Assembly (NCBI GenBank): GCA_016183245.1 | Contig: JACPEY010000033.1 | Span: 1 to 52,818 of the forward strand | DNA from: Candidatus Daviesbacteria bacterium | Lineage (GTDB): Bacteria > Patescibacteriota > Microgenomatia > Daviesbacterales > UBA10151 | DNA length: 52,818 nt | Reading direction: 5' to 3' | Part shown: in pieces, positions 1,414 to 50,168 of the stretch | Layout of the letters: every line of letters starts with the position of its first letter | Position numbering within the stretch: position 1 is the stretch's first letter | Notes under the pieces: model-generated | Databases searched by the model: none | Seen by the model: only the letters and a program-made list of their open reading frames with translations | Told to the model about the DNA's origin: nothing | Position numbers and translations under genes: made by a program

Positions 1414-1471
1414 AAAAGCTATTCGTGTTTCGCCGTTAGCTATTAGCCAAAATCCAATAGCTAAAAGCTAT

Positions 1472-2246: not shown

Positions 2247-3572
2247 CTAAGAGCTCATTAGCTTTTGTTTGATTTCAATGAACATCCTTTGTACTTCCCT
2301 ATCCTGATTGACCAATTTTTTAATTTTATCCCTGCCGTGCATAACAGTTGTATGATCCCGTTTACCTAACAGTTGTCCTATTTTTTCCACAGTTAAATTT
2401 AATTGTTCACTTAAGATAAACATAGTAATATGCCGCGGCAAAACCAGTTCTTTTTGTCTTTTTGCTCCGGTTAAATCTTTCTGGTTTAGGTTAAAATATT
2501 CACAAACTGTTTCCAGAACTTTTTTGGGTTCAATCTTAATATTACTTTGCTGGATGGATTTAGTCTGAAGATGCTTGCCAATATTCTCCGGCGTAGGAGG
2601 CAGGTTTTGAACTTGCAGGAGTTGTAGTATTCCAACGAGTTGTCCTTCCAACTCCCTTATATTGGTTTCAAAAGAAGCAGCCAACATTTTTAAAGTTTCC
2701 TCCGGCAGGTTTGCTTTGTGCTCCAGGCATTTTGACCGCAAAATTGCAACCCTGGTATCAAAATCAGGTTGTTGGATATCAATCATCAAACCTCCGACAA
2801 ATCTGGACTTTAACCGGTCTTCCAGTTTGGGGATTTCGTGCGGAGATCTGTCTGAGGTTAAAACTATCTGGCTGTTTTTACCAATAAGCTCATTAAAAGT
2901 ATGAAAAAACTCTTCCTGGGTTCCTTCGCGGCCGGAAAAAAATTGAATATCATCAACCAGCAGTACATCTGCCAGGCGGTATTTGGCCCGCAAATCTCCC
3001 ATTTTGCGGGTTTGGATGGCTGCAACATAGTCATTCATGAATTTTTCTGAAGGAGAGTAGATAATTTTGGCATGAGGTTTTTTATCCAAAATAGCATTGC
3101 CGATGCCGAGCATCAGATGTGTTTTTCCGACACCTGTACCGCCATAGATAAATAAAGGGTTGTAAGATGTGCCGGGGTTTTGGACAATTGCCTGGGCTGC
3201 CGCATAAGCTACATTATTAGAGGGACCAACTACATAGTTTGATAAAGAATATTTGGGGTTTAAGACAGAAACTGCAGCTTGAATAGGCTGGAAAAAATCC
3301 TCTTCTTTTTCCTCTGTCTGTTTTTCTGCTTCTTTAACAATAAATTCAACCGCTACACTTTTTCCCAAAAGATTGGCAAAGCCGGTTTCTATAATAGGCA
3401 GGTATTTTTGGCTCAAAGTTTCTTTAACGAAAGCATGAGGGGTGGAAAGTACTATTTTGTCATCTGAGCAGCTTTTTAAAGAAGCTTTTAGAAACCAGGC
3501 CTTGTAATTGACAGGGCCTACTTGGGATTTGATGGTTTCTAAAAATTTGTGCCAAAGGCGTAAATTGTCCAT
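2247..3572 (-). CDS. dnaA: Chromosomal replication initiator DnaA
   Basis: Walker A GGTGVGKTHL, AAA+ core, and C-terminal DNA-binding helix region (HTTVMHGRDKI). I prefer the ATG at 3572 (MDNLRLWHKF) over the track start at 3602, because the extra 10 codons are made of two perfect DnaA boxes. Confidence 0.95.
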   Translation of the reverse strand: MDNLRLWHKFLETIKSQVGPVNYKAWFLKASLKSCSDDKIVLSTPHAFVKETLSQKYLPIIETGFANLLGKSVAVEFIVKEAEKQTEEKEEDFFQPIQAAVSVLNPKYSLSNYVVGPSNNVAYAAAQAIVQNPGTSYNPLFIYGGTGVGKTHLMLGIGNAILDKKPHAKIIYSPSEKFMNDYVAAIQTRKMGDLRAKYRLADVLLVDDIQFFSGREGTQEEFFHTFNELIGKNSQIVLTSDRSPHEIPKLEDRLKSRFVGGLMIDIQQPDFDTRVAILRSKCLEHKANLPEETLKMLAASFETNIRELEGQLVGILQLLQVQNLPPTPENIGKHLQTKSIQQSNIKIEPKKVLETVCEYFNLNQKDLTGAKRQKELVLPRHITMFILSEQLNLTVEKIGQLLGKRDHTTVMHGRDKIKKLVNQDREVQRMFIEIKQKLMSS

Positions 3573-3573
3573 T

Positions 3574-3601
3574 GTGGATAAGTCAAAATCAGTTATCCAC
3601 A
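3574..3601. promoter_or_regulatory. Pair of perfect DnaA boxes immediately upstream of dnaA
   Basis: TGTGGATAA at 3574-3582 and TTATCCACA at 3593-3601, convergently oriented. Confidence 0.7.
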
Positions 3602-3703
3602 ATTTAATTCACATTATCCCCTCTTTCAATATGGAGAAACTATAAATAAGTAGATCAAGTTTGTGTTGATTATAAAGATTATAACAGTTATAATGTTTAT
3701 ATT

Positions 3704-3841
3704 ATGCCAAAAAGAACATATCAACCCAAAAAGTTAAAAAGAATTAAAAAGCATGGCTATCGGGCCAGGGCTGCAACTTCCGGCGGACAGAAGGTTTTAA
3801 AAAGAAGAAGGGCAACAGGTAGGGCTCGCCTCGCAATTTGA
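3704..3841 (+). CDS. rpmH: 50S ribosomal protein L34
   Basis: Hand translation gives [45 protein letters not shown] (45 aa). It is absent from the ORF track because it is short. The stop overlaps the rnpA ATG (ATGA). Confidence 0.9.
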
Positions 3842-4179
3842 TGCTTTCCAAAGATAAACGCCTTAATTTAAAAACAGACTTTAAATGGGCAGCTGGTGGC
3901 AAAAAACTGGAAACAAAGTATTTAAAACTTTTTGTTAAGGTAGGAGATAATGAGTTTCCAAGGGTAGGGATAGCTGTTTCTTCTAAAGTTTTTAAAAAGG
4001 CTACAGAGCGCAACAAAGCCAGAAGAGTTGTTTCTGCAGCATTTGAATCTCTTTACTCAAGTTTGCCGTCTACTATTAATATAGTGGCTCTTCCCAAAGC
4101 AGGGGCAACTAATGTAAAATCAGGAGATATTCTTTTGGATCTGGAGGAAGGGTTAAAAGAAGCGCGAATAATACAATGA
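3838..4179 (+). CDS. rnpA: RNase P protein component
   Basis: 113 aa and basic, in the conserved rpmH-rnpA-yidD-yidC order. The start overlaps the rpmH stop. Confidence 0.85.
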
Positions 4180-5724: not shown

Positions 5725-6919
5725 AGACACTCTCCTTTTTTTAACCCTACTCTTTTTGCCCACTCAACTAGGTAAACATTTTTGGCCTTCGTTCTCTTAT
5801 ATATATTCTTTAAAAATTGACTATCTGTCCCCTGTCATTTATTTTTGGGACATTCTGGCAGCAGGACTTCTGGCAGTTTGGTTTCTGCAAAAACCAAAGA
5901 TTAATAAACTTGCGCTTAACCTTTTGTTGGTGTTTTTGTTTACCCAGGCTTTGTCTTTAATTGGTGCCGGAAATATTGGAGCAGGGCTGGTAAGACTTGA
6001 GCAATATATACTGGCTGGTTTTTTTGGAGTATATCTTTCCTCCCTGGACTTTAAAAGTCTGGCGCAAAAAATTTTCCTGCCGCTTGCTTTAGGTATTTTA
6101 GGGCAAGCTCTTATAGCAATCCTGCAGTTTTTAAAGGGTTCAACTATTGGTTTTTGGTTTTTGGGCGAAAGGACTTTTAGTATTACAACACCCGGGATTG
6201 CCAAATTTGACTTTTATGGCAACCAGTTTTTAAGGCCTTATGCAACTTTTCCTCTCCCAAATGTTCTGGCAGGATATTTAGTAGTTATGGTTTATGGTTT
6301 ATGGTTTATGGTTTATAGGCAGAAACGTCTTTTAAAAGCAGTTTCAATATTAGCAGCAGTGATAATTTTTCTGACTATGTCAAGGGTGGCAATTTTGGCT
6401 GGAATGGTGGCGGTTCTGGTAATGCTGCGGCGTCAATCAATAAAGATTATAATTCTTATAACTATTATAACAATTATACTTTCCCCTATTCTTTTTATCC
6501 GATTTTCTGCTATTTTTAACTTTGACAGTTTAACACTAACAAGGCGGGAGGAGCTGATAGGAAGCGCATGGCAGATTTTTTTAAAAAAGCCTTTTTTTGG
6601 AGTGGGTTTAAATAACTTTATTCCGGTTTCAGCCGGAGATTTATTAACAGGTCCCAGCCGTTTTCTGCAGCCGGTCCATAATATTTTATTACTGGAACTG
6701 GCTGAGACAGGAATAATTGGCTTGATGGGATTATTGGGTCTCATCGGATACCCGGTATTAAAAAGATCAAAATTCAAAATTCAAAATTCAAAATTATTGT
6801 GGGTTATAATTCTTTTTCTGGGGATGTTTGATCACTATTTTTTAACTTTGCCTCAGGGTTACCGGCTGCTGTTTTTAATCTGGGGATTATCTTTTAGTTC
6901 TTCTGCAAAAACTGCTTAA
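5702..6919 (+). CDS. O-antigen ligase/polymerase-like (Wzy_C-type) polytopic membrane protein
   Basis: Many TM helices plus typical segments MSRVAILAGMVAVLV and PVHNILLLELAETGIIGL. The start is placed at the ATG at 5702, since upstream codons overlap jag. Confidence 0.7.
   Translation: MLKIKKAEDTLLFLTLLFLPTQLGKHFWPSFSYIYSLKIDYLSPVIYFWDILAAGLLAVWFLQKPKINKLALNLLLVFLFTQALSLIGAGNIGAGLVRLEQYILAGFFGVYLSSLDFKSLAQKIFLPLALGILGQALIAILQFLKGSTIGFWFLGERTFSITTPGIAKFDFYGNQFLRPYATFPLPNVLAGYLVVMVYGLWFMVYRQKRLLKAVSILAAVIIFLTMSRVAILAGMVAVLVMLRRQSIKIIILITIITIILSPILFIRFSAIFNFDSLTLTRREELIGSAWQIFLKKPFFGVGLNNFIPVSAGDLLTGPSRFLQPVHNILLLELAETGIIGLMGLLGLIGYPVLKRSKFKIQNSKLLWVIILFLGMFDHYFLTLPQGYRLLFLIWGLSFSSSAKTA
6767..6794. 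repeat. Heptanucleotide tandem repeat (TCAAAAT)x4 inside a CDS
   Basis: Four perfect 7-nt units, translated as KFKIQNSK near the C-terminal part of the O-antigen-ligase-like protein. Confidence 0.9.
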
Positions 6920-7433: not shown

Positions 7434-7476
7434 ATCAGGAGTATATCATCTATGAAGCATATAATTTGTTTATTAT

Positions 7477-8922
7477 CTAAGGATCTTTTGTAAACAGTTC
7501 CTCATAATCAATTCTCTCTCCTGCAATCACTTTTTTTTGTAATTCAGTAGCCGAATAAGCTAGTTGCTCGCAACGGGCATCTAATAGTTTTTTGATCGGT
7601 CTGGCTATTTCATCGTAATTTTTAGGGCAGAAGCTATTTTTACCGTGTCTGCTAATAGGTTTATAGGATGTAGAGAGTCTATAGAAAACGTCAGGGAAAT
7701 CAAGTGATTCATTTAGAGCTTCCGAGAGGATTTTGCTCTTTTTTTCCGGATCAAGATTGGGGTTATTTGCAACCCCGTTTTGAAATGCCGCCAGTATTCT
7801 AGGTATTCTTTGTTCAACTACCTCTCTTAGCATATCAACTATATTTTGCAAAGGAACTGTAACGCCTTCCATGGCTTTTAAAGCTAGAGAATCTGCGTAT
7901 TCTAATTCTGCTAATCCGTTTAAGCAGGTGCTAAATGATTCTCTGGCATATTGTTGCGCAGAATAGTATTCGCCGTAGGTAATCCGAGAAGCAAAAAGTA
8001 TGAAATCTTTCCAGAATCTTACGGTTCGCCTTTTTACATTCAGATAATTTTCTCCTTGGTAATCTTTTTTCCACCGCTTTACATCGCTTATTATAGGAGA
8101 CCCTTTTTTTAAAAAAGCATTAATTAGATATGCTTGAGCGGGAGTTAAAAAAGTTATGATATTTTCAATCTCTTCCGGGGTTTTTCCGGCTACAACTAAT
8201 GCTCTGTGTCTTTCTCCTAAATACCTCATCTGATATTTTGATCTTTCAAGTTCTTCAAAAATCACTTGCTCCCAGATTGTTTTTGTAGTTCCAGAACCAG
8301 AAAGCGCTCTTCGGTATGACTCGATATCTTCCTCTAGCGCTGATTTATAACATCCTTCTTTACCAAAGTATATTTCATGATTGATACTTCTTATGTAAAG
8401 CCAAGATTGAGAATCTTGTCTGCTGGTAATATATTCTTCTGTGATTGCCTGAAGTTCGTCAAGATATGTGCCAACCAAATAAGTCAGACCGCCTTTAATA
8501 AGCCTTCTAAAGCCATGTATATCCCCCGCATTTAGAAGTGTTTCGATTGCCAAAGTTGATTGATCCTGCAGTCTTTGTTTATTTGCTAGCCAATCTTCTA
8601 CTGAAGCTGGTTCTTTGCAGAGGTACTGAGGATGAAAGTAGCTATATTTCTGATGTCTTCTTTCATGAGAAACGCTCTGAGGAATATTATGACGAAAATC
8701 AGGATCATCATTTACCAAAAAGTATGGAGCCTTAGCTCCTTCTATAGAAATAAGATACCTTTCAGAAGAAGATCCGATTACGTTAGTCCTATTATGGGGA
8801 TCCTTCCTAAGTTCGTAGAAAGGATCTTTTCTTACTAATATCGCAAGAGAGGTTGGGTGTATCGATATTTCCATGATATCTTCTATACTGCATCCAAGTG
8901 AAGTTGCCACAATTTCATCCAA
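7477..8922 (-). CDS. Hypothetical protein (ORFan), probable downstream part of a frameshift-fused gene
   Basis: Long open frame whose track start is a TTG. The frame stays open upstream to the stop at 8971-8973. No motif I recognise. Confidence 0.6.
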   Translation of the reverse strand: MDEIVATSLGCSIEDIMEISIHPTSLAILVRKDPFYELRKDPHNRTNVIGSSSERYLISIEGAKAPYFLVNDDPDFRHNIPQSVSHERRHQKYSYFHPQYLCKEPASVEDWLANKQRLQDQSTLAIETLLNAGDIHGFRRLIKGGLTYLVGTYLDELQAITEEYITSRQDSQSWLYIRSINHEIYFGKEGCYKSALEEDIESYRRALSGSGTTKTIWEQVIFEELERSKYQMRYLGERHRALVVAGKTPEEIENIITFLTPAQAYLINAFLKKGSPIISDVKRWKKDYQGENYLNVKRRTVRFWKDFILFASRITYGEYYSAQQYARESFSTCLNGLAELEYADSLALKAMEGVTVPLQNIVDMLREVVEQRIPRILAAFQNGVANNPNLDPEKKSKILSEALNESLDFPDVFYRLSTSYKPISRHGKNSFCPKNYDEIARPIKKLLDARCEQLAYSATELQKKVIAGERIDYEELFTKDP

Positions 8923-9305: not shown

Positions 9306-10568
9306 ATGCAAAGTTTAATTAAAATTTCCCAGCAAACTATTTGGCAGGTTTTGGGGAAAGCGGTTACTTCCCTGTCTACCTTTATTATATTAGGGCTGGT
9401 TGCAAGAAATTACGGCCCCAACGGAACAGGTATTTTTACTCTGGCACTTACATACCTTGCGATATTTTACCTTCTGGCGGATTTTGGATTTAATGCCCAC
9501 GAACTAAAAAGAGTCAAGAGACTAGAGTCAAGAGATAAGGAATGGAATAAATTGTTGGGGACAAGGGTGGTTTGGTCTGGCATTTTGATTATTTTGGCAA
9601 TAGGGCTATTACCTTTCTGGCCTTTTGCTACAGCGCAGTTTAACACAGCAGTTTTTATAGGAAGTTTGGCAATTGCGGCTTCAGCAATATTTATAACCTG
9701 TAATTTAATTTTTCAAAGTAAATTAAGATATGACTTGTCTGTAATTGCTTCTAGTATTGGCACCTTAGTTGGGTTGGTAATTACAGTTTGGTTAATAAGT
9801 TCCCGCTTCCCTGTTTCCCAGATTATCCTGGGTCATTTAATAGGATGGGTATTCATAGCAGCCAGCGCGCTCATTTTATGCGGAAGATTGCTTCGTTCCT
9901 TCGCTCCTCGCAATGACAAACAAGAAAAGTTTCCCAGTTGCATTGGGAAACCAATTATTGATTTATCATATGCCGCTAACTTGTTTAAGCAGTCTTGGCC
10001 AATTGCTGCAACATTGTCTTTAAATGTTTTATATTTTCGGGCAGATTCTTTTTTAATAGCTTATTTTAAATCCGTCTCAGATGCAGGAATTTATAATGTA
10101 GCTTATTCTTTTTTTCAAACTGCTTTGGTTTTGCCGACCTTTATTATGAATGCTTATTATCCTTTAATGTTAAAATCTTTAGCTAAAGTAAAAGTGATGG
10201 GACTTAGTTTACTGGGGATATCCTTGCTCGGGACCGTCCTTACTTTAACTGCTGCGCCTTTAATCATTAAGATTTTGACTGGTGGTGGTTTTGCCGGTTC
10301 AACTTTGTCTTTGCAGATTTTATCTTTAGGTTTTCCGGCTTATTTTTTATCATCGCTTTTAATGTGGATTTTTGTGGCTAAAAATAAGTATAAAACCTTG
10401 TTTTTGCTTTACACGTCCGGGACGATTTTCAACATCTTATTAAATATTTTCTATATTCCAAAATATTCTTATATAGCTTCATCATGGATTACCGTGATTT
10501 CAGAATATTTTATTTTGATTTTGCAGATTATGGTATTATGGTTTGCAGAAAGCAGGTTCAAGAGATGA
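9306..10568 (+). CDS. MOP-superfamily polysaccharide/lipid-linked oligosaccharide flippase (Wzx/MurJ-like)
   Basis: 420 aa with ~12-14 TM helices and the typical N-terminus (QQTIWQVLGKAVTSLSTFIILGLVAR). Carries in-frame repeat fragments at 9511-9535 and 9884-9917. Confidence 0.7.
   Translation: MQSLIKISQQTIWQVLGKAVTSLSTFIILGLVARNYGPNGTGIFTLALTYLAIFYLLADFGFNAHELKRVKRLESRDKEWNKLLGTRVVWSGILIILAIGLLPFWPFATAQFNTAVFIGSLAIAASAIFITCNLIFQSKLRYDLSVIASSIGTLVGLVITVWLISSRFPVSQIILGHLIGWVFIAASALILCGRLLRSFAPRNDKQEKFPSCIGKPIIDLSYAANLFKQSWPIAATLSLNVLYFRADSFLIAYFKSVSDAGIYNVAYSFFQTALVLPTFIMNAYYPLMLKSLAKVKVMGLSLLGISLLGTVLTLTAAPLIIKILTGGGFAGSTLSLQILSLGFPAYFLSSLLMWIFVAKNKYKTLFLLYTSGTIFNILLNIFYIPKYSYIASSWITVISEYFILILQIMVLWFAESRFKR
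9884..9917. repeat. Half copy (right arm) of the GTCATTGCGAG-type palindromic repeat inside the flippase CDS
   Basis: AGATTGCTTCGTTCCTTCGCTCCTCGCAATGAC matches the right arm of the copy at 47445-47522. Translated as LLRSFAPRND. Confidence 0.7.
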
Positions 10569-10975: not shown

Positions 10976-11063
10976 ACTTTTGACTCTAGTCACCTGCCAC
11001 TTGTTACTTTCCGATATCTTTTCATCCTCTTGATTTTATATTATAGAGTGTTACGATTTACCC

Positions 11064-13949
11064 GTGGCCGAAATTACCGATAATAGCATAAGCAAAGCGA
11101 GCATTAACCTTTCGCGAAACAGCCCGGTAGCTTTAGTTGTGGGAGCTGCCTCCTTTTTGGGCTCTCACCTGGTTGACAAATTATTGGACAAAAGTATTCA
11201 GGTTATCGGAGTAGATGATTTGGCATCTGGAGAAAAACGGAATTTAGAAAAAGCAGCAGAAAACCGCAATTTCCACCTGATCATTGAGTCTCCTGATAAA
11301 TTGGATATAGATTTATCAAGACTTGATTACATATTTATATTGCCGGGAGGGGAATGGAATTTAGGGAAGGTCCTGGATCTTTTTAAAAAAAATAACTGCC
11401 GTTGCCTTTTTGTTTCCTCAATTGATTTATATGAAAAAGATAATGATAGCGATGAGTTGGGCAGGCTTAAAAGCATTGAAAGCAGGATTGCCAAATTTGC
11501 TGCTGATTTTAACTTAAATGCCAGAATTCTAAGGCTCGGCTCTGTATACGGACCAAGGATGCAATTTAAAATTAAAGAACCGCTTGCTAAGCTGATTCAG
11601 CAGGCATTAACTGGAGATTTGCACAAAGATGTTTCTTTGGAGTTTTCCTCAAGGGCTTTATATGTTTCAGACGCGGTAGATTTGATGGTAAGAACTATTT
11701 TAGCAGGAAGCACTGCCCAGAAGATTTTTGACGGAGTGCTGCCAACTCCGGTTAAAGTGGCTGAGATAAAGATGGTGCTTATGGATCCTTTGTGGTACGA
11801 AAGCCGGGATTTTACTCCTTCTGAGTTGCCTCCCTGGTCAACCCCGAATTTAGAAAAAACAATTAAATTTTTAAACTGGCAGCCGAAAATTTCTTTGGTA
11901 ACTGCTTTAAGAGAAACCATACAGTTTTTTAAAGATAATGAGATCAGTGTACCCAAACTGGAGGAGAAAGTTGTCAAAGAGATCAAGGTTGATTTAGACG
12001 AGGATAAAAAAGAGGATTTGGAATTTTTAAAGCTGGGGGGTAAAGAAATTGCGCAGAAGGTTAAAAAAAAGGCAGAGTCTAAATTTTCTTTACCCATGTC
12101 AAAAATATACCTGATTTTGGTAATTTTCCTGGTGGGTTATGCTTTAATTTGGCCAGGTCTGGTTTTTGGATGGGGGCTTTTTACTTTCAGTTCAGGAATT
12201 TCCCAGGGTCTTAGAAATTTGGAACGAGGTGAGTTTGAAGAAAGTTTAGCAAATATCAAGCAGGCAAACATAGGGGTGCAAGCTGCAAAATCTGTTTTTA
12301 ATACACTGGAGCCAATCCGGAAGCTGGAGGTTTTTGATCAACAGTTTATACTGGCAGATAATTTGTCAAATTTGTCTATTCTTTCTGTCACTTCAGCGGA
12401 GAATGCTGTTTTAGGCATGCAAGCACTTTTGCAAAGCTTAAAAGCAGTAACAGGGGAAACAGCTGAGTCTCCGAATGCTTATTTTGCTTTGGCTCAAGTG
12501 GAGCTGTCCTCAGCCAGTGATGATTTATCTAAAATTACAGCTCTTTTAAAAAGTCCAGAATTTGGCGAAAGTATTCCGCCTGTTGTAAAACAGCAAATAG
12601 AGAGCTTTTCTAAAAAACTTGAGTTTTACCAAAGCTTGGTAACCCGGGCCAAAACCATGAGTATGCTGTTGCCGCAGCTGGTTGGGATGGAAGGGAATAA
12701 AAGCTATCTGATAATTTTGCAAAATAACATGGAACTTAGGCCGGGAGGAGGCTTTATCGGTTCTTTTGCCAAAATCAACTTTGAGGTTGGAAAGCTGAAA
12801 AAATTAGAGGTTAATGATATCTATAATTTGGATGGCAGCTTAAGTATGCATGTTGAGCCTCCAAAAGAAATTAAAGAGGATTTAGGGCAGAAGGATTGGT
12901 TTTTACGGGATTCTAACTGGGAGCCTGATTTTCCTACTAATGCCCGGCAGGCAGAGTGGTTTTACAACAAAGAGGCAGGGGAAAGAGTGGAGGGGGTGAT
13001 AGCTTTAGATATTTCAGCCATGGAGGAGCTGCTTTCTGTTATCGGTCCTTTAGATCTTGCTGATTACAGTGAACAAATTACTTCAGAAAATCTGTTTGCA
13101 AAAGCTATAACTTATGCTGAAAGCGGGTTTTTCCCCGGGTCTCAGGCCAAAAAAAGCTTTTTAACAGCTTTGACAAACCAGGCTTTTAATAAAATTTTTT
13201 TCCTGCCTCAAAAAAACTGGCCGGGGATTATCTCAGCTATAGGAAGGTCTTTGGATGAAAAACACATCAGCATCTATTTAAATGATCCGAAACTATTCTC
13301 ATATTTGGATTCTCAAAACTGGGTGAATATTTTGCCGAGAGGGGCAACTGCAAAGACAAGCCAGGACAAAACAGGGCAGGATCGCGATTTTTTGGCTTTG
13401 GTTGAAGCAAATTTGGGAGCTAATAAAGTAAATTATTATTTGGACCGGAGTTACAAGCTGGAGACTGTAGTAGGGAAAGAGGGAGAGATCAGGCATACAA
13501 TGCGTATAAACTACACCAATAGAAGTCCTTCAGACACTTTTCCCGGAGGGAAATATAAAAACAGAATGCGGGTTTATTTGCCTTTTGGCAGCAAACTAAC
13601 AAAAGCTTTATGGGGGGAAACTGATATTACCAAACAAGTCAGTAGTTTTACAGATTACGGCAGGTCGGGGTTTTCTATGCTTTTGGAGCTTTTGCCTAAA
13701 GAGCAAAAAAGCCTGGTTTTGGATTATTCAGTGCCATTTAAAATTGAATTTAAAGATAACCTGGCAACATACAGACTGGATATTATTAAGCAGGCAGGTA
13801 CTTTAAATGATCCGCTGCAATGGACAATCAGTTACCCGATAAATTATCAATTAGCCTCAGGTAAGACAACAGCACTTGGCCCTCAGGAGCAAACTATTTC
13901 TACTGATCTGTCCCGTGACAGGAGCTTTGAGGTAGGGTTTAAGAAATAA
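11064..13949 (+). CDS. Fusion protein: degenerate SDR/epimerase-like N-domain, one TM segment, and a DUF4012-like C-domain
   Basis: N-terminus VVGAASFLGSHLVDKLL...VYGPRM is NAD-epimerase-like. TM segment at IYLILVIFLVGYALIWPGLVFGWGLF. C-terminus has LRPGGGFIGSFA, typical of DUF4012. GTG start. Confidence 0.7.
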   Translation: MAEITDNSISKASINLSRNSPVALVVGAASFLGSHLVDKLLDKSIQVIGVDDLASGEKRNLEKAAENRNFHLIIESPDKLDIDLSRLDYIFILPGGEWNLGKVLDLFKKNNCRCLFVSSIDLYEKDNDSDELGRLKSIESRIAKFAADFNLNARILRLGSVYGPRMQFKIKEPLAKLIQQALTGDLHKDVSLEFSSRALYVSDAVDLMVRTILAGSTAQKIFDGVLPTPVKVAEIKMVLMDPLWYESRDFTPSELPPWSTPNLEKTIKFLNWQPKISLVTALRETIQFFKDNEISVPKLEEKVVKEIKVDLDEDKKEDLEFLKLGGKEIAQKVKKKAESKFSLPMSKIYLILVIFLVGYALIWPGLVFGWGLFTFSSGISQGLRNLERGEFEESLANIKQANIGVQAAKSVFNTLEPIRKLEVFDQQFILADNLSNLSILSVTSAENAVLGMQALLQSLKAVTGETAESPNAYFALAQVELSSASDDLSKITALLKSPEFGESIPPVVKQQIESFSKKLEFYQSLVTRAKTMSMLLPQLVGMEGNKSYLIILQNNMELRPGGGFIGSFAKINFEVGKLKKLEVNDIYNLDGSLSMHVEPPKEIKEDLGQKDWFLRDSNWEPDFPTNARQAEWFYNKEAGERVEGVIALDISAMEELLSVIGPLDLADYSEQITSENLFAKAITYAESGFFPGSQAKKSFLTALTNQAFNKIFFLPQKNWPGIISAIGRSLDEKHISIYLNDPKLFSYLDSQNWVNILPRGATAKTSQDKTGQDRDFLALVEANLGANKVNYYLDRSYKLETVVGKEGEIRHTMRINYTNRSPSDTFPGGKYKNRMRVYLPFGSKLTKALWGETDITKQVSSFTDYGRSGFSMLLELLPKEQKSLVLDYSVPFKIEFKDNLATYRLDIIKQAGTLNDPLQWTISYPINYQLASGKTTALGPQEQTISTDLSRDRSFEVGFKK

Positions 13950-14946: not shown

Positions 14947-14995
14947 GTCATCCTGAGCGAGCGATTAGCGAGTCGAAGGATCCCGGTCAGGACGA
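14947..14995. repeat. Truncated MITE-like repeat (GTCATCCTGAGCGAGCG...GTCAGGAC)
   Basis: Shares CCTGAGCGAGCGA..GCGAGTCGAAGG with the fragment inside tsaD at 19713-19739. Confidence 0.6.
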
Positions 14996-15004
14996 GGAAC
15001 AAAT

Positions 15005-15787
15005 ATGGACAGATTATCACTGGATGCTGAAGAAAGAAAAATACTGGGTAAAAAAGTTAAAAACTTGCGCAAAAACGGCAAGCTGCCCGGTCATGTGTTT
15101 GGTAAAAAACTAGAAACAGAACATGTTTCAGTTGACGGCAAAACCTTTTTAAAAATCTTTAAGGAGGCAGGGGAGACTGGTTTGATTAATTTAAGGATCG
15201 GATCTGAAAAAGTCAGGCCGGTTATGGTTAAAGGCGTGCAATATGACCCGGTTTCCGGTGACCCGATCCACATTGATTTTTATCAGGTAAATTTAACCCA
15301 AAAAGTCAAAGTCCCTGTGCCGATTGTTTTAGTTGGTGAAGAGCCGGAGGCAGTGAAATTGGGTGAGGCAATTGTTTTGCAGACAATGAACGAGCTTGAA
15401 GTAGAAGCGCTTCCGGCTGATTTAATAGAAAAAATTGAAGTTGATATTACTAATTTAAAAAATATTGATGATGCTGTAACTGTTGGGGGTTTACAATTTG
15501 ACAGGGAAAAGTTGACAGTTTCAGCAAACGATGAAGACATCGTAGTTAAGCTGGCGCCGGCAATCACAGAGGAGATGAAGAAACAAATGGAAGAAGAAGC
15601 AGCCCAGGCAGCTGCTGTTGCTGCAGAATCAGGGGCAGAGGCAGCCGGAGAAGAAGGTGCGGCAGCTGAGGGTGGAGAAGCTCCAGCAGAAGGCGCAGAC
15701 GGCAAACCAGATGAAGGTCATGGTCCTGAGGAGTCGAAGGGTGGAGAAGCAAAACCAGCTGAAGGGGAGGCAGAAGGAACAAAATGA
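15005..15787 (+). CDS. rplY: 50S ribosomal protein L25/Ctc with a long acidic A/E/G-rich tail
   Basis: N-terminus LSLDAEERKILGKKVKNLRKNGKLPGHVFGK...IHIDFYQV. The last ~70 aa are low complexity. Confidence 0.85.
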   Translation: MDRLSLDAEERKILGKKVKNLRKNGKLPGHVFGKKLETEHVSVDGKTFLKIFKEAGETGLINLRIGSEKVRPVMVKGVQYDPVSGDPIHIDFYQVNLTQKVKVPVPIVLVGEEPEAVKLGEAIVLQTMNELEVEALPADLIEKIEVDITNLKNIDDAVTVGGLQFDREKLTVSANDEDIVVKLAPAITEEMKKQMEEEAAQAAAVAAESGAEAAGEEGAAAEGGEAPAEGADGKPDEGHGPEESKGGEAKPAEGEAEGTK

Positions 15788-16458: not shown

Positions 16459-18777
16459 TCAAGTGTTTATATTATTAGGCCACTTAGTAACCATAATAGT
16501 TTTGCCTTCATGGGGCAGTTTTTGCCATAATTCTTCAGTTATAAACGGCATGAATGGGTGCAAAAGCTCCAAAGATGTCCTGAATACGTATTCTAAAACC
16601 GGCTGGGCTTGGGCCCGCCTGTCTTTTGTTGATTCAATATATTTGTCTGCAAATTCATGCCAGATAAATTCATATAAAGCATCTGATCCGTCATGAAATC
16701 TATAAGAATCCAAGGCTTTGGTGACTGTTTTAATGGTTTGGGAAAGTTTTTCCAGAATTTGTTTGTCATCCTCATTTTTTCCTGTCATTCTGGCGAACGT
16801 AGTGAGTCCAGAATCTGTGTGATTCGTTGATTCTGGAGTCGTCGCGGAGTTTACCCCGTACTTTGATACGGGGTCCCTCCCCAGAATGACAGCAGTGGGA
16901 TTTAAATGTTTAGCATCTTCCGGGGCAAAGTCGATAATAAAACGGCCAATGTTCCACAATTTATTGGTAAAATTTCTCATGGCTTGCAGTTTAGGATGGG
17001 ACAACGCCTGATCGTGACCAAAAGCATTGCCATACATTAAAGCCATCCTTAAAGCATCTGCTCCGTAAAGGTTGGCAATTTCAATCGGGTCAACCACATT
17101 GCCTTTGCTTTTGCTCATCTTTTTACCAAGCGGGTCCAAGACTTTGCCATGCAGGAGAATATCTTTGAAGGGGATTTTGCCGGTGATGTAAATTCCCAGC
17201 ATGACCATCCGGGCTACCCAGAAGAGCAAAATATCATAGCCGGTTTCCATCACAGATGTCGGATAAAACTTATCAAAATCTTCCGGTTTGGTGGATTGCA
17301 GGGTAGCAAAGGGCCACTGGCCGGAAGAAAACCACGTATCAAATACATCCGGATCTTGTTCCAGTTGAGCAGAGCCACAATCTGGACATTTTTCAGGTTT
17401 TTCGCCTTCAGTCACAATCCAGATTGTATTATTTAGTTTTGAACTTTTAGTTGTAGTTTTGACTTTTGACTTTTGACTTTTGACCTCGCTGCATTTTATG
17501 CAGCGCCAGGCCGGAATCTGCATCCCCCAGACAATTTGCCGGGAAATATTCCAGTCTTTTAAATTCTCCAGCCAATTAAAGTAAGTAGTTTCCCAATTTT
17601 TAGGGACAATTTTTATGGTTCGACTTCGCTCACCATTAACCGCTTCAATGGCAGTTTTTGCTAGCCCGTCCATTTTTAGAAACCATTGTTCCAAAGGCAG
17701 CGGTTCAATTTCTGTACCGCATTTATAACAAACCCCCACCCTGTTTTTGTAATTTTCATCCATTTTTTCAATTAAGCCCTTCTCTTGCATCTCTACGGCA
17801 ATGGCTTTTCTGGCTTCCTTTACTCTCATGCCAGCAAACTTGCCGGCTTTTTCATTTAAACGGCCGTCAAAACCAATTACCTGGCGGATCTCCAGGTTAT
17901 GCCGCTGTCCTATTTCAAAATCTATTGGAGCATGGGCAGGGGTAACTTTAATGACTCCTGTTCCAAAGTTGGGGTCAACAGCTTTGTCTGCAATTACTTT
18001 AATTTTGGCCGGGCCTAACACTGTTTCAATACTTAAGGTTTCTCCTATATATTTTTGATAACGTTTATCATCAGGATGAACTGCCACGGCAGTATCACCG
18101 AATTTGGTTTCCAGTCTAACTGTAGCCAGTGTTAACGGCCCGTATTTAATGTAGTAAAGCGGGGTAGTCCGGTCCTCATATATAACTTCCAGATCAGAAA
18201 ATGAGGTGCCATGTCTGGTGCAGTAATTAACTAACCTCAGTCCCCGGTAAGCCAGGCCGTCATTAAATAATTTCTTGAAAGTTTTATAAACTACTTTGAC
18301 AATATCCGGGTCAAGGGTAAATTTTTCCCGCGACCAGTCAACAGAAAAGCCTAATTTACGAAGCTGTCCTTCCATGGTGCCTTTATTGGCCTGGACAAAA
18401 TCCCAAATCATTTTATATAAAGTTTCCCGGTCAAAGTCAAAACGGGACTTACCTGTCTTTTCCAAGTGTTTTTCAAATACTACTTGAGTTTCAAAGCCGG
18501 CATGGTCTGAACCCGGCAGCCATAAAGCAGCCTCACCTTTCATCCTATGATACCTGATTAAAATGTCCTCAACAGTATATAAGGCGTGGCCAAAATGCAA
18601 AGGGGCATTGGCATTTGGCGGGGGTAGGATAATGGTGTAAGGCTTGCCTTCAGGGTTTATCTCAGGTTGAAAATAGCCTGCTTTTTCCCAAATGTCATAC
18701 CACTTTGGTTCAACTTTAGTCTGGTCGTATACTTTCTCCATGGAGTAAGTATAGTGTTTTGGAAGGGGGAAGGTCAA
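16459..18777 (-). CDS. valS: Valyl-tRNA synthetase (short form, no long C-terminal coiled coil)
   Basis: PPPNANAPLHFGHAL (HIGH-type), KMSKSKGN, an editing-domain-length insert, and DKYIE in the anticodon-binding region. Carries two in-frame repeat insertions. Confidence 0.95.
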   Translation of the reverse strand: MTFPLPKHYTYSMEKVYDQTKVEPKWYDIWEKAGYFQPEINPEGKPYTIILPPPNANAPLHFGHALYTVEDILIRYHRMKGEAALWLPGSDHAGFETQVVFEKHLEKTGKSRFDFDRETLYKMIWDFVQANKGTMEGQLRKLGFSVDWSREKFTLDPDIVKVVYKTFKKLFNDGLAYRGLRLVNYCTRHGTSFSDLEVIYEDRTTPLYYIKYGPLTLATVRLETKFGDTAVAVHPDDKRYQKYIGETLSIETVLGPAKIKVIADKAVDPNFGTGVIKVTPAHAPIDFEIGQRHNLEIRQVIGFDGRLNEKAGKFAGMRVKEARKAIAVEMQEKGLIEKMDENYKNRVGVCYKCGTEIEPLPLEQWFLKMDGLAKTAIEAVNGERSRTIKIVPKNWETTYFNWLENLKDWNISRQIVWGMQIPAWRCIKCSEVKSQKSKVKTTTKSSKLNNTIWIVTEGEKPEKCPDCGSAQLEQDPDVFDTWFSSGQWPFATLQSTKPEDFDKFYPTSVMETGYDILLFWVARMVMLGIYITGKIPFKDILLHGKVLDPLGKKMSKSKGNVVDPIEIANLYGADALRMALMYGNAFGHDQALSHPKLQAMRNFTNKLWNIGRFIIDFAPEDAKHLNPTAVILGRDPVSKYGVNSATTPESTNHTDSGLTTFARMTGKNEDDKQILEKLSQTIKTVTKALDSYRFHDGSDALYEFIWHEFADKYIESTKDRRAQAQPVLEYVFRTSLELLHPFMPFITEELWQKLPHEGKTIMVTKWPNNINT
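16784..16890. repeat. MITE-like palindromic repeat inserted in frame in valS
   Basis: GTCATTCTGGCGAACGTAGTGAGTCCAGAATCTG...CCCCAGAATGAC. The left arm nearly matches 2149-2230. Translated as ILGRDPVSKYGVNSATTPESTNHTDSGLTTFARMT. Confidence 0.85.
17437..17484. repeat. Heptanucleotide tandem repeat block (GACTTTT x3 plus degenerate units) inside valS
   Basis: Perfect units at 17461-17481. Translated on the minus strand as KSQKSKVKTTTKSSKL. Confidence 0.85.
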
Positions 18778-18786
18778 TTGTAACTA

Positions 18787-19965
18787 TTACTGGACTAGAG
18801 ACAGGTTGGGGTTGGCCTGGAGGGTTAAGGGGTCTATAGGGTGGTAGTTATAAAAGGCAGTGGAGGCAATCATGGCAGCATTATCAGTGCAAAGCTTGGA
18901 AGCAGGTACATGTAATCTAATTTTGAATTTTGAACTTTGAATTTTGAATTTCAAATCAGAAACCAGTTTCTGATTTGACGCTACTCCTCCTGCAATCATA
19001 ATTTGATCAACTTTATACCTTTGGGCTGCTCTGACAGTTTTTTCAACAAGAACATCTACAATAGCAGCTTCTATAGAAGCTGCTAAGTTATTAGTGATTA
19101 GTTTGTAGTTTGTAGAATTTTTGTCTTTACTACCAACTACCAACTCTGAACTCTGAACTAAATTAGCAACTGCAGTTTTTAAGCCTGAAAAGGAAAAATC
19201 CCATCCATAGGTTGGTCGTCCTCTGGACGAAAAATCTTTCATCATTGGCCTGGGGAGATTAAAAGCATTAGGATTACCAGACTTGGCTAACTTAGCGAGA
19301 TTGGGGCCGCCCGGGTATGGAAGCCCAAGAAGTCTGGCGCATTTGTCAAAACACTCTCCTGCTGCATCATCCCGGGTTCCCCCTAGGTATTCATACTTGC
19401 CATGGTCTCCAAATAAAACTAAATCAGTATGTCCGCCGGAAACAAGCAGGCCAATGCAGGGGAATTTAGGTAAGTGACTAGTCGCTAGAGTCGAGAGACT
19501 AGACTTTTCTTTTTTATTCCTTGACTCTTGACTCTGGACTCTTGACTCTTCCCATATCCAGTTTGCATAAAAATGGCCGAGCAGGTGATTAACCGGTATA
19601 AGAGGTTTACCCCAAACTAAAGCCAGAGTTTTGGCTGTTTCTATTCCTACTAAAAGCGAGCCGATTAGTCCTGGTCCCTGCGTGACTGCAATAGCATCTA
19701 AACTTTGTTTACCCTGAGCGAGCGAAGCGAGTCGAAGGGCCTCTTCAATTACGGGAATAATGGATTTAATTTGTTCTCTGGCAGCTTGTTCCGGAATCAC
19801 GCCGCCGTATTTAGCTTGTAAATCAGCTGACGATGCCACAATATTGGATAAAATTATTACCCCTTTGTCTACCAAAGGCTTGTCGTAGGCGGATATTTCC
19901 ACTACAGCAGCTGCCGTTTCATCACAACTGGTTTCAATTCCTAGAATAACTTTTGGTCGTGTCAT
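18787..19965 (-). CDS. tsaD: tRNA N6-adenosine threonylcarbamoyltransferase
   Basis: ILGIETSCDETAAAVV, GPGLIGSLLVG, LLVSGGHT and IAGGVASN. At 392 aa it is lengthened by three repeat-derived inserts. Confidence 0.95.
   Translation of the reverse strand: MTRPKVILGIETSCDETAAAVVEISAYDKPLVDKGVIILSNIVASSADLQAKYGGVIPEQAAREQIKSIIPVIEEALRLASLAQGKQSLDAIAVTQGPGLIGSLLVGIETAKTLALVWGKPLIPVNHLLGHFYANWIWEESRVQSQESRNKKEKSSLSTLATSHLPKFPCIGLLVSGGHTDLVLFGDHGKYEYLGGTRDDAAGECFDKCARLLGLPYPGGPNLAKLAKSGNPNAFNLPRPMMKDFSSRGRPTYGWDFSFSGLKTAVANLVQSSELVVGSKDKNSTNYKLITNNLAASIEAAIVDVLVEKTVRAAQRYKVDQIMIAGGVASNQKLVSDLKFKIQSSKFKIRLHVPASKLCTDNAAMIASTAFYNYHPIDPLTLQANPNLSLVQ
18921..18948. repeat. Heptanucleotide tandem repeat (TTTTGAA)x4 inside tsaD
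   Basis: Four units, one with a single substitution. In the sense orientation this is the same TTCAAAA unit as 6767-6794. Translated as FKIQSSKFKI. Confidence 0.9.
19088..19160. repeat. Period-7 repeat block forming an imperfect inverted repeat inside tsaD
   Basis: TTAGTGATTAGTTTGTAGTTTGTAG ... CTACCAACTACCAACTCTGAACTCTGAACTAA. Translated as SSELVVGSKDKNSTNYKLITNN. Confidence 0.8.
19474..19550. repeat. Repeat block inside tsaD ending in (GACTCTT)x4
   Basis: GACTAGTCGCTAGAGTCGAGAGACTAGAC ... with heptamer units at 19523-19550. Translated as EESRVQSQESRNKKEKSSLSTLATSH. Confidence 0.85.
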
Positions 19966-24505: not shown

Positions 24506-24745
24506 ATGTTAGCATGCACAAGATGCGGAAAAGGTAAAAATACGCTTTCTTTTTCAAGGCACAAAAAAGGTTCCTCAGGAGCAGGAGGGGTGTGGGCCCT
24601 TCGCGCCCCAATTCATAAAAGAGTCCAGAAACCTAACCTGCATAAATTTAATGGTCAAAAATATTGCACTAAATGTTTGCGGGTAGTTAAAGTTCCTTTA
24701 AAGGAAAATCAGGGTAGCCGTTTAGAAAGTCCTGTATTGGCATAA
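24506..24745 (+). CDS. rpmB: 50S ribosomal protein L28 with an internal GC-rich insertion
   Basis: CTRCGKG...SRHKK...KRVQKPNLHK...YCTKCLR matches the L28 layout. The tail overlaps the fmt 3' end by 59 nt, convergently. Confidence 0.7.
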   Translation: MLACTRCGKGKNTLSFSRHKKGSSGAGGVWALRAPIHKRVQKPNLHKFNGQKYCTKCLRVVKVPLKENQGSRLESPVLA

Positions 24746-25649
24746 CTTTTTTCCCTTCCATTTGAATCAGGATTTTGTCATTCTGAGGAGTCTTCGACGA
24801 AGAATCTCCCACTCGCCTCGCTGAGTCGGCGAAGCGGGCGTATGTGGGTCTCGCATGCGCGAGAGATCCTTCCCCGCCCTCACTGCCTCCGGCTGAGAGG
24901 CGGGTCAGGATGACAGAGGGAAGAAATTTTACAATTTTACCCTTCCAGCGGGTCCAAACCCCCGGCCAGGGGTAGTAAGCCCTAATCATTCTGTCTAAAA
25001 CTTCTGGAGATGGAGGATTTTCAATATCAAAAAATCCATCCTGTTTGGTAAAGTGTTTGGTATAGGTGGCTTTGGACTGATCCTGTTTGATGGGTTTAAT
25101 TTCCCTTTTCAGATATTTGTTGATAACTGAAACTAGTAATTCTCCGCCCATTTTATTTAAAGTTGTTAAAAGCGAGTCAGTATTTTCTTTTGCTGACAAA
25201 ACATATTCTTTCTGTGCCAGGAGATCTCCGGCATCCACCTCTTTAGTCATCTGGATCACAGTTACCCCGGATACTTTATCACCATTTAAGATAGCAAAGG
25301 GTGCAGGAGAAGGACCGCGGTATTTTGGGAGGATAGAGTGGTGGATATTTAAGGAAGCATATCCTGGGATACTTAAAAGCTCATCCGGTAAGATTAAACC
25401 GAAATCTTCCACAACTAAGAAATCTGGCTGCTGTTTTTTCACCCTTTCTATAACAGTTTGGTCTAATTTATCAGTTTCTACCAGAGGAATATTTAACTTC
25501 TCTGCCATGTTTTTAACAGGGTTAAAATCTAACTTTTTAGTAATAATTAACGACAGAGGATGGGTTGAATTGATAATCCGGGCGCCTATTGTTGAGTACT
25601 TTGTGTTACCAAAGAAAATAATGGATAGATTTTTCATAAAACGCTTCAA
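24687..25649 (-). CDS. fmt: Methionyl-tRNA formyltransferase
   Basis: IIFFGNT..., NIHHSILPKYRGPSPA, GVTVIQM..VDAGD. Contains a 138-nt in-frame repeat insertion in the C-terminal domain. Confidence 0.9.
   Translation of the reverse strand: MKRFMKNLSIIFFGNTKYSTIGARIINSTHPLSLIITKKLDFNPVKNMAEKLNIPLVETDKLDQTVIERVKKQQPDFLVVEDFGLILPDELLSIPGYASLNIHHSILPKYRGPSPAPFAILNGDKVSGVTVIQMTKEVDAGDLLAQKEYVLSAKENTDSLLTTLNKMGGELLVSVINKYLKREIKPIKQDQSKATYTKHFTKQDGFFDIENPPSPEVLDRMIRAYYPWPGVWTRWKGKIVKFLPSVILTRLSAGGSEGGEGSLAHARPTYARFADSARRVGDSSSKTPQNDKILIQMEGKKVMPIQDFLNGYPDFPLKEL
24777..24914. repeat. MITE-like palindromic repeat inserted in frame in fmt
   Basis: GTCATTCTGAGGAGTCTTCGACGAAGAATCTCCC...GGGTCAGGATGAC, 138 nt = 46 codons, GC-rich. 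Translated as ILTRLSAGGSEGGEGSLAHARPTYARFADSARRVGDSSSKTPQND. Confidence 0.85.
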
Positions 25650-34004: not shown

Positions 34005-34085
34005 GTCATTGCGAGGAGCGAGTCTTCGAGCGACGTGGCAATCTATTTTATATAGAAGATTGCTTTGCTAATCGCTCGCAATGAC
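34005..34085. repeat. MITE-like palindromic repeat (GTCATTGCGAG...CTCGCAATGAC) between the PfkB kinase gene and ahcY
   Basis: 11-nt perfect terminal inverted repeats plus an inner GCAATCT/AGATTGC pair. Confidence 0.85.
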
Positions 34086-46764: not shown

Positions 46765-47721
46765 ATGGAAAAAGCGATTTTAAAAACACTAATTTATGCA
46801 GATATTTTTGATTACCCCTTAAAGATAAATGAAATACATAAATGGTTGATTGGGAAAAAAGTAACACTCAGGCAGTTGGAGAAAGCGCTGGGGAAGTTAG
46901 TGGGTAGGTTACAGGTCTTCGACTCCGAGGTCGCTCAGACTCGAGGAGTTGCAGCCTGCAGAAGATTTTATTATTTGCCAAAAAGAAAAAAACTGATTAG
47001 TAAAAGGTTGGAAAAAGCCAGGCAGTCTGAGGTCTATTTAAAAAAGGCCAGAATGCTTGCCCAGGTTTTGAAAGTAATCCCTTGGATTAAATTGGTTGGG
47101 ATTTCAGGGGGCTTGGCTTTAAATAATGCCGGCAAATATGATGACATTGACCTTTTTATTGTTACTGCCAAAAACCGTTTGTGGGTTTCAAGACTGCTGG
47201 CTTTAGGACTACTGTCTTTAACAGGACAAAGAAGAAAGGCAGGAGAAAGCGGGAAAAAAGTTGCCGGGAAAATATGCGCTAATATTTTAGTGGAAGAGGA
47301 TAAACTGGAGCAGAAAAATAAAGATATATATACTGCCCATGAAGTTTTACAAATGAAAGTTTTGTGGCAGCGGAATGGGATTTATTCTAAATACTTATAT
47401 GATAATGAGTGGGTTTTTAAGTTTTTGCCAAACTGGGTGGATTCGTCATTGCGAGCCCCGAAGGGGCGTGGCAATCTAGTACCGCAGAAGATTGCTTCGT
47501 CGCATTCGCTCCTCGCAATGACGTGGATGGAGGGTCTTGCTAAATGGTTTCAGCTGAAAATAATGCAGAAACAAAAAGGGATGGAGCGGATAGAAGACGG
47601 GGCCCTTTATTTCCATCCTCAGGATTGCCGCCTGGGAGTTTTATCAGAATATAAAAAGAAATTATCTAGATTTTTTGACTCTTGGCTCTCGCGACTAGTC
47701 ACTGACTTAATCAGTCCTTGA
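46765..47721 (+). CDS. Hypothetical protein with a Pol-beta-type nucleotidyltransferase-like motif
   Basis: GISGGLALNNAGKYDDIDLFIVT resembles the G-S...D-x-D NTase signature. Carries in-frame repeat insertions at ~46911-46955 and 47445-47522. Confidence 0.5.
   Translation: MEKAILKTLIYADIFDYPLKINEIHKWLIGKKVTLRQLEKALGKLVGRLQVFDSEVAQTRGVAACRRFYYLPKRKKLISKRLEKARQSEVYLKKARMLAQVLKVIPWIKLVGISGGLALNNAGKYDDIDLFIVTAKNRLWVSRLLALGLLSLTGQRRKAGESGKKVAGKICANILVEEDKLEQKNKDIYTAHEVLQMKVLWQRNGIYSKYLYDNEWVFKFLPNWVDSSLRAPKGRGNLVPQKIASSHSLLAMTWMEGLAKWFQLKIMQKQKGMERIEDGALYFHPQDCRLGVLSEYKKKLSRFFDSWLSRLVTDLISP
47445..47522. repeat. MITE-like palindromic repeat inserted in frame (78 nt = 26 codons)
   Basis: GTCATTGCGAGCCCCGAAGGGGCGTGGCAATCT...AGATTGCTTCGTCGCATTCGCTCCTCGCAATGAC. 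Translated as SLRAPKGRGNLVPQKIASSHSLLAMT. Confidence 0.85.
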
Positions 47722-48135: not shown

Positions 48136-48144
48136 TTCTCCATT

Positions 48145-48258
48145 GTCATTCCGAGCGATTAGCCCGCTTCGACTTGTCGAAGACGAGGCGAGCGAGGAAT
48201 CTCCCACGAATGTGGGTCTGAAATAAATTCAGAGATTCTTCACTGCGTTCAGAATGAC
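48145..48258. repeat. MITE-like palindromic repeat in the groES-groEL spacer
   Basis: GTCATTCCGAGCGATTAGCC...TTCAGAATGAC. It shares the GAATCTCCCAC core, followed by a related GTGGGTCT motif, with the fmt copy. Confidence 0.85.
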
Positions 48259-48280
48259 AAATAAAAAAGAGGATAAAAAT

Positions 48281-50168
<1,888 letters not shown>

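Follow-up and report, generated by a model that had tools for sequence, protein, structure and literature searches.

How does a palindromic repeat come to lie in frame inside an essential translation gene, and by what means does it persist there? For Rickettsia such insertions are a curiosity known from textbooks, and Ogata and colleagues are said to have described Rickettsia palindromic elements (RPEs) in frame in genes in 2000 (Science 290:347). The same question is raised by Candidatus Daviesbacteria bacterium, an ultra-small inhabitant of groundwater that belongs to the Microgenomates within the Candidate Phyla Radiation (CPR, or Patescibacteria). In its contig JACPEY010000033.1, analysed over 52,818 nt (this whole stretch is called the window below), the methionyl-tRNA formyltransferase gene fmt contains an element of 138 nt, or 46 codons, at positions 24777-24914. 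We think that this element is a selfish, non-autonomous dimer of hairpin repeats, tolerated as a disordered loop at a permissive turn of the Fmt protein and filtered by frame, length and position, and we give this reading a probability of roughly 0.8.

The fmt open reading frame (ORF) occupies 24687-25649 of the minus strand (320 codons), with def directly upstream, and its translation runs continuously across the element as V-ILTRLSAGGSEGGEGSLAHARPTYARFADSARRVGDSSSKTPQND. The product was recognised by Pfam Formyl_trans_N (E 4.9e-29) and Formyl_trans_C (E 2.3e-10), and its top matches among PDB sequences and among folds compared by Foldseek are Fmt structures. With TIGR00460 it scored 189.4 bits (E 8e-56), just under the cut-off of 201.5 bits, because the match ends at residue 245; the insert takes up residues 246-291, in the C-terminal domain. 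Its placement there, in frame, had been proposed by a first-pass annotation made from the letters alone, and the read-through of the ORF bears this out. The alignment columns of the catalytic Asn, His and Asp are invariant, and the 29 residues C-terminal of the insert agree with those of orthologues.

The coordinates and sequence of the element given in that annotation proved exact: it starts with GTCATTCTGAGG at 24777 and stops with GGGTCAGGATGAC at 24914. Two inverted hairpin units and a spacer make up the whole. The units carry their TGTC tags outward, one at each outer end (24776-24779 on the plus strand, and the complement of 24912-24915). Unit A (24777-24806, plus strand, 30 nt) has the form GTC-ATTCT-G...AGAAT-C, in which the outer and inner pentamers are complementary. 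Unit B (24865-24914, minus strand, which is the gene strand, 50 nt) has the form GTC-ATCCT-GA...AGGAT-C and a longer internal hairpin, CCCGCCTC...GAGGGCGGG. The spacer of 58 nt (24807-24864) contains CCCAC (24808-24812)...GTGGG (24844-24848) and TCTCGC-ATGC-GCGAGA (24849-24864). The guanine and cytosine content (GC) rises from about 0.35-0.40 in the flanks to 0.65 in the element.

As RNA of the gene strand, the element folds at -68.8 kcal/mol (z -3.9, with 0 of 200 shuffles as good); the fold of the DNA has z -4.25. Its two arms differ at two positions, and the differences are compensatory inside each arm, which points to the unit hairpin as what is conserved. Related copies have equivalent spacer hairpins with compensatory changes. 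RNAalifold, on an invariant subset, favoured the long hairpin, and the covariation table described below favoured the local unit hairpins; both the long-range pairing of the arms and the local hairpins can form. Only one of the six frames of the element is open, that of fmt, and the other five all run into stops.

Was the element inserted into fmt, or did fmt homologues lose it? The first-pass annotation had called it an insertion and had proposed an alignment of orthologues as the check. In this alignment 104 of the 120 Fmt homologues, the closest ones (64-66% identical) included, have no residues in the insert columns. Between the motifs KF[LY]P and [IL]QMEGK there are three codons in the closest orthologues and fifty in the window fmt. 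The nearest orthologues are empty in their DNA as well: one related locus (L002) reads ...AAA TTT TAT CCC GAA GGC AAA ATC CAG ATG GAA GGC... and another (L003) reads CCA GGC GAA ATA ATG CAA ATG, which agrees with the insertion as proposed. Here, as in the RPEs, a palindromic multi-copy repeat lies in frame and the homology of the host protein resumes on both sides of it. In the groundwater DNA runs, no allele of this strain with an empty site turned up at 99% identity or above; the empty sites there come from related species of the same aquifers.

An artefact was also considered, namely a chimera of the assembly or a decaying fmt pseudogene. The locus is present in six groundwater DNA runs from two studies, and in no RNA run. 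Contigs of the short-read graphs break within the element, as might be expected of a chimera, but they break there because it is a repeat, and unitigs of 100% identity tile 24750-24919, the whole element included, in four runs from the two studies. Contigs from the six runs bear out both junctions, each of which is spanned by multi-kb contigs, and the depth of the unique internal 81-mer at 24811-24891 equals that of the flanks. Inside the right-hand unit the metagenome depth is 10-100 fold higher, so this sequence must be common in the community. A pseudogene, in turn, is contradicted by the intact ORF, the invariant catalytic residues and the conserved 29 residues at the C-terminal end. The misassembly considered in the first-pass annotation was not borne out, and we regard either form of artefact as having an almost negligible chance.

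One small difference was seen near the right flank. At positions 24939-24942 the right-flank contig has GTTA where the window has ACCC, in all runs with the locus; this replaces Lys-Gly by Asn-Asn just before KIVKFLP in Fmt and is the sole difference in 511 nt. Being adjacent, the four changes resemble a short replacement more than a set of point mutations.

Where in the protein would 46 additional residues be accommodated? AlphaFold2, using the alignment of homologues, gave a confident Fmt fold (mean predicted local distance difference test score, pLDDT, of 85 and predicted template modelling score, pTM, of 0.82), with 4IQF, 1FMT and 2FMT as the best Foldseek matches. In this model the pLDDT of residues 245-285 (316-residue numbering) is under 50, and they have strand 234-240 on one side and strand 289-293 on the other; the strands flanking the insert are predicted with pLDDT above 90. 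The insert is predicted to be a disordered segment in an otherwise confidently folded Fmt. Its loop or surface position in the predicted structure, with the Fmt fold kept, is again that of an RPE. The loop is rich in Gly, Ser, Ala and Arg and contains 5 Arg, 1 Lys and 1 His; the tryptic peptides of an insert-bearing Fmt would include LSAGGSEGGEGSLAHAR and FADSAR.

The position of the insert acquires meaning when it is compared with canonical Fmt. Profile alignment with solved structures placed 33-34 residues of the E. coli, Bacillus anthracis and Coxiella proteins exactly at the insert junction. They form strands of the C-terminal beta-barrel, have no counterpart in Microgenomates Fmt and are unrelated to the insert, and a homologous insert in Fmt from genomes free of the repeat, the finding that would have spoken against the first-pass proposal, was not found. 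Judged by these alignments, the insert site is the scar of a lineage-specific domain reduction, at which the chain naturally leaves and re-enters. Since canonical Fmt makes an excursion of 34 residues there, the chain ends should be adjacent and the site should tolerate an insert.

We propose the following course of events. An inverted dimer resembling a REPIN or a MITE (a miniature transposable element with inverted repeats), and belonging to the superfamily of the CGTC-tagged repetitive extragenic palindromes (REPs) and Ssn-related motifs discussed below, would have inserted at a beta-hairpin tip in the C-terminal domain of Fmt, a domain that is reduced here. It would be transcribed and translated together with fmt, adding a disordered surface loop of 46 residues. 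Its persistence would depend on a selective filter for a stop-free orientation and phase (one of six), a length that is a multiple of three and a permissive site. We infer that the insert is neutral or nearly so.

If such a filter operates, then we can ask: how does it show in other copies of the repeat? The census was made in 1.3 Mb of Microgenomates loci, which had been fetched through Fmt and were unselected for the repeat. It gave 118 units, against 11 in the reversed-sequence control. The outer pentamer of a unit predicts the inner one (ATTGC-GCAAT in 35 of 38 units, ATTCT-AGAAT in 25 of 38, ATCCT-AGGAT in 23 of 38 and ATTCC-GGAAT in 10 of 14), with almost nothing off the diagonal of the table. 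What the family conserves, on the strength of this covariation, is DNA hairpins and not a peptide. Sixty-one of the 118 units (52%) are read through in ORFs that have 150 codons or more; ORFs of this size make up 78% of the DNA. Thirty-six dimers were counted, 18 of them in such ORFs, and a dimer has on average 1.5 of its six frames open.

The first-pass annotation had proposed a test of whether copies in coding regions are enriched for lengths divisible by three and for one reading orientation. The first enrichment was found: 13 of the 18 coding dimers, but 4 of the 18 others, have a tag-to-tag length divisible by three (Fisher p = 0.007). The second was not, since single units have no significant bias of orientation (15 vs 9). 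Coding copies are filtered, yet not excluded.

The same statistics bear on the possibility that the element is removed before the protein is complete, either because RNA is excised where the long hairpin closes or because ribosomes bypass the element, so that mature Fmt would be free of the 46 residues. The very stable fold described above, which joins both junctions, speaks for such a process. However, removal does not require an open frame, and only the frame of the host is open in the element, while coding dimers are enriched for lengths in multiples of three. This filtering of coding copies by frame and length favours translation through them over removal. Searches of Rfam, with the whole window at the gathering threshold and with the element at E up to 1, returned nothing except two matches at chance level; they revealed no intron or ribozyme signature for the element, and the tRNA scan found no tRNA. 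We consider removal very unlikely, and intron, intein and bypass readings were all rejected on the frame statistics. An intein was rejected also because the insert begins with V-I-L and the next residue is Lys, instead of the required Cys, Ser or Thr.

Is the window alone in carrying a repeat at this turn of Fmt? Among 68 species representatives, 14 have more than three residues there, and at least nine of these filled turns hold recognisable units, which differ in subtype and phase. The inserts are 7-50 residues long, and apart from the translated tags their peptides have no motif in common. Dimers of the VIPAKAGI type were detected in L006 and L059, single units of the RHPERSEGS type in L008, L045, L041 and L047, and a SLRG...EAI unit in L029. 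The dimer of L001 (99 nt) is the one with the modular type, orientation and phase of the window copy. In the 80 loci compared, the density of units around fmt is 3.9 times that of the rest (binomial p 2e-8, a value that ignores shared ancestry), and additional peaks were seen in two places, the def-fmt spacer and an upstream Wzy_C/TPR gene, the latter with two sites.

This recurrence might suggest that the loop has been co-opted, replacing part of the lost tRNA-binding C-terminal subdomain and being kept for its function. The exact coincidence of the site with the missing 33-34 canonical residues, the 14 filled turns and the raised unit density around fmt are all in agreement with such a role. 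The variation of the inserts in length, subtype and phase is not, nor is the want of a common peptide motif. The nearest relatives (P0002, P0003, P0005 and P0006) have no insert at all, the insert is predicted with pLDDT below 50, and the family conserves hairpins instead of codons. Co-option seems to us quite unlikely.

A stronger alternative is a single old insertion, inherited vertically, with its interior overwritten by gene conversion or recombination and with precise loss in many lineages. The filled alleles do share flanks (P-S-x on the left and [F/Y]-L on the right) which are absent from the empty alleles (P-G-G, P-E-G); the L001 element agrees with the window copy as described, and the sisters P0015 and P0019 have the same short insert. 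On the other hand, filled alleles are scattered over the neighbour-joining tree, which has no support values: in it the sisters of the window Fmt are P0003 and P0005, both empty, and P0004, with an insert of the same type as the window, is sister to the empty P0038. The differences of subtype and phase among species also argue for separate events. We hold one old insertion to be doubtful, though it deserves to be taken seriously.

A more speculative idea is that the Fmt turn, the def-fmt spacer and the two Wzy_C/TPR sites are homing sites for Ssn-associated elements of different subtypes. We think this improbable. If it were true, the Ssn/repeat system would be a site-directed, in-frame remodeller of essential CPR proteins, and some of the loops might be co-opted, patching the truncated tRNA-binding domain.

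Some further observations were made around fmt in these loci. Counted from the 3′ end of fmt, the Wzy_C/TPR gene lies 3-4.5 kb upstream. Among L006-L085 units accumulate at syntenic positions of this gene and of the def-fmt spacer in many species; in the Wzy_C gene of about 690 aa, L056 and L059 share one codon position and L069, L077 and L083 another. Small dimers lie just 5′ of fmt in six loci. A complete GIY-YIG element, of the kind described in the next paragraph, was detected in the def-fmt spacer of L029 and just 3′ of fmt in L045.

What could have moved the repeat? We searched the loci for inverted units 350-3000 nt apart and inspected the ORFs between them. Small ORFs of about 95 aa found there are GIY-YIG domains (PF01541, E about 1e-16). 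On both sides of each of the eight GIY-YIG ORFs of the close subfamily in the local loci, inverted units lie no more than tens of bases away. In one of the eight, L073, the element has 217 nt (6182-6398) and its GIY-YIG ORF is reduced to the last 29 codons; it is an intermediate towards the gene-less form. In Smithella, Omnitrophota and Patescibacteria genomes, chosen by protein search when their flanks were unknown, the same unit-gene-unit architecture was found in 3 of 3. Units of the ATCCT and ATTGC types, both present in the window, flank GIY-YIG genes in L117, L045 and L070.

An association of this kind is already on record, and we reject it as a novelty: SsnA of Neisseria meningitidis is a GIY-YIG nuclease of 94 aa (Chenal et al. 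2025, PMC11893778). Acting on single-stranded DNA only, this enzyme binds the NTS hairpin (CGTCATTCCCGCGMAVGCGGGAATCYRG) and cleaves beside it; thousands of its homologues are flanked by "Ssn-related motifs", and the authors likened NTS-ssnA-NTS to an insertion sequence (PMC11893778). The repeats described here have the same architecture of tag and hairpin, and in related genomes canonical motifs (TGTCATTCCCGCGAAGGCGGGAATCC) stand on both sides of GIY-YIG genes of about 95 aa. That work concerns transformation and biochemistry in Neisseria, and the terms 'in-frame' and 'Patescibacteria' do not occur in its main text (PMC11893778). In L029, L206, L213 and others, the sequences flanking GIY-YIG genes match the published pattern for Ssn-related motifs; so does the in-frame Fmt insert of L006.

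An Ssn-type nuclease specific for single-stranded DNA, supplied by unit-gene-unit copies elsewhere, would act on the hairpins when the DNA is single-stranded. Spread of the dimer by such a nuclease is a reasonable but unproven suggestion, to which we give somewhat less than even odds.

Other small GIY-YIG ORFs, which are more distant and have 33-38% identity to the Ssn-like ORFs, were found in L028 (about 16600-16730), L043 (about 7470-7560), L011 (about 15220-15340) and L076 (about 13260-13380). They are preceded by other hairpin repeats, for example GTGATTGGTGCGTTTAACGCACCACC and CCTGCCACGTTCA...TGAACGTGGC, which suggests further pairings of nuclease and repeat with different tags.

It remains to place the element among the known repeat systems. 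Like the RPEs, it is a palindrome of the order of 100-150 nt or less, lies in frame in conserved genes, those for translation and tRNA among them, would be read as an extra surface peptide and occurs in many copies in a reduced genome. Unlike the alphaproteobacterium Rickettsia, the host belongs to the CPR, and about half of the units are intragenic in the sampled Microgenomates loci. The insert peptides had no match at E up to 10 in NCBIfam, a collection which presumably holds a model of the RPE1 domain. Nothing turned up in the literature for the terminus strings, or for RPE in combination with Patescibacteria.

The CGTC-tagged REPs were defined by Di Nocera, De Gregorio and Rocco in 2013 and equated with dRS3 of Neisseria (PMC3733652). 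These authors identified CGTC-4 and CGTC-1 REPs with RPE-4 and RPE-6 of Rickettsia conorii, reported in-frame dimers and RPEs in that species and listed intragenic dimers encoding 20-30 residues; no enzyme gene was reported alongside the repeats (PMC3733652). The present units resemble them in the terminal C/TGTC tag (TGTC or CCTC being allowed, and TGTC being the case here), in a stem which opens with complementary A-T (here ATTCT/AGAAT and ATCCT/AGGAT), in a short C-rich tail, in intragenic copies and in inverted dimers, whose spacer of 20-100 nt is sometimes structured (here 58 nt with two hairpins).

With the REPIN-RAYT systems (Bertels and Rainey 2011, PMC3116915) the element shares a non-autonomous design in which two inverted hairpin repeats form a larger hairpin. 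In both cases the supposed mover is a single-copy enzyme whose gene has these repeats on its flanks and whose targets are hairpins in single-stranded form. However, the tag is YGTC (TGTC in the window) and not GTAG, the candidate enzyme is a GIY-YIG nuclease and not an HUH tyrosine transposase, and many copies are intragenic, whereas REPINs are almost entirely extragenic.

The repeat is of a kind already known from RPEs, CGTC REPs and Ssn-related motifs, and it is not specific for one lineage but belongs to a described superfamily that crosses phyla. A pattern scan found this type of dimer in more than 120 metagenome contigs with GC of 0.33-0.69, a range which means that the family reaches far beyond the CPR. 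One metagenome contig, L183 (GC 0.43), has five near-identical dimers of 95 nt on one strand within 3.7 kb (524-4157); this cluster is a local array and not a set of dispersed copies. New are the lineage and the gene that hosts the element, the large share of intragenic copies and the recurrent use of one Fmt turn.

Several points weigh against the reading of the element as a mobile and tolerated dimer. No target-site duplication or other insertion signature could be defined at its ends. Tblastn found no GIY-YIG ORF within the 52.8-kb window, and the published Ssn-related pattern, HGTCWYN(0-2)YYVSBRHN(0-5)WNVSBRGN(0-2)RNCYNB, has 0 matches there (shuffle mean 0.12); the window units are treated here, on account of the GIY-YIG genes which units of their types flank in L117, L045 and L070, as variant members of the superfamily which fall outside the strict published pattern. 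We know of no transposition activity shown for any Ssn protein. The units also depart from the CGTC REPs, which have a stem of 8-9 bp and a loop of 4-5 nt, by their covarying outer stem of 5 bp and their length of 30 and 50 nt. Random insertion followed by filtering does not explain why different inserts recur at one turn, nor why they share flanks. Finally, we infer translation of the insert from the DNA and not from RNA or protein. The right flank, in addition, has an ATCCTGA string resembling the terminus of the element, which L001 does not share.

The phenomenon known from Rickettsia occurs at large scale in the CPR, another lineage with reduced genomes. In-frame inserts of this kind inflate and distort protein families, lower the scores of their models and break short-read assemblies. 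The spread of RPE-like repeats would gain a concrete candidate in the Ssn GIY-YIG nucleases, which were characterised in 2025. The repeated use of one beta-turn, at a scar of domain reduction, may serve as a natural experiment on the tolerance of proteins to insertion.

The window contains other copies of the family. The terminal motif GTCATYSYGA occurs in it 10 times, against 0.25 expected, and 0 of 100 shuffles reach 10. In total 14 units, six dimers and two singles, were recognised, the other copies being tagged TGTC or CGTC. Four sites are read in frame: fmt and valS have one each, and the other two lie in a Polysacc_synt gene and an ORF that matches no family. The first-pass annotation had claimed that fmt, besides valS, is a second essential translation gene hit by the family, and the claim stands: an inverted dimer at 16784-16890 lies in frame within valS (16459-18777, minus strand; NF004349, 845 bits). 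The valS insert as a whole has 126 nt (16765-16890), made up of this dimer and the remnant GTCATCCTCATTTTTTCCT (16765-16783). It falls at about residues 630-671, between the catalytic core and the anticodon-binding domain, where the TIGR00422 match is split. A single ATTGC-type unit (9886-9917, minus strand) lies in frame within the Polysacc_synt membrane-protein ORF 9306-10568 (plus strand). An ATTGC-type dimer of 78 nt (47445-47522) lies in frame within ORF 46765-47721 (plus strand, 318 aa), which had no match in Pfam or NCBIfam.

The remaining copies are not read in frame. They are an ATTCT-type dimer of 82 nt in a non-coding context (2149-2230), a single ATCCT-type unit (14947-14982, plus strand) just upstream of ORF 15005-15787, and an ATTGC-type dimer of 81 nt between a ribokinase-like gene and ahcY (34005-34085), with all six frames closed. 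A copy of 114 nt (48145-48258) in the groES-groEL spacer has the spacer type CCCAC-GAAT-GTGGG. The core which it was said to share with the fmt element (GAATCTCCCAC ... GTGGGTCT) is indeed common to the two, and with the CCCAC/GTGGG spacer module it places them in the same family. The groES-groEL spacer that holds this copy (48136-48551) is unusually long, about 416 nt, and an ORF of 101 codons without a family match (48254-48559) overlaps the start of groEL.

On the other side of fmt, a zinc-ribbon ORF of 79 aa (24506-24745, plus strand; CxxC...CxxC, SRHKKGSSGAGGVWALRAPIHKR) converges on the gene and overlaps its final 59 nt. It follows fmt in every close locus checked and is probably a ribosomal protein similar to bL28. 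An insert in this ORF too was considered and rejected, the GSSGAGG segment being conserved across all orthologues. Two unrelated families of short repeats, of the GAGTCAAGAG/CTCTTGACTC type and as runs of AAATTCAAAATTC, lie between genes of the window at 9502-9543, 10977-11009, 19466-19550, 47679-47710 and 47825-47854, and also at 6762-6796 and 18918-18951.

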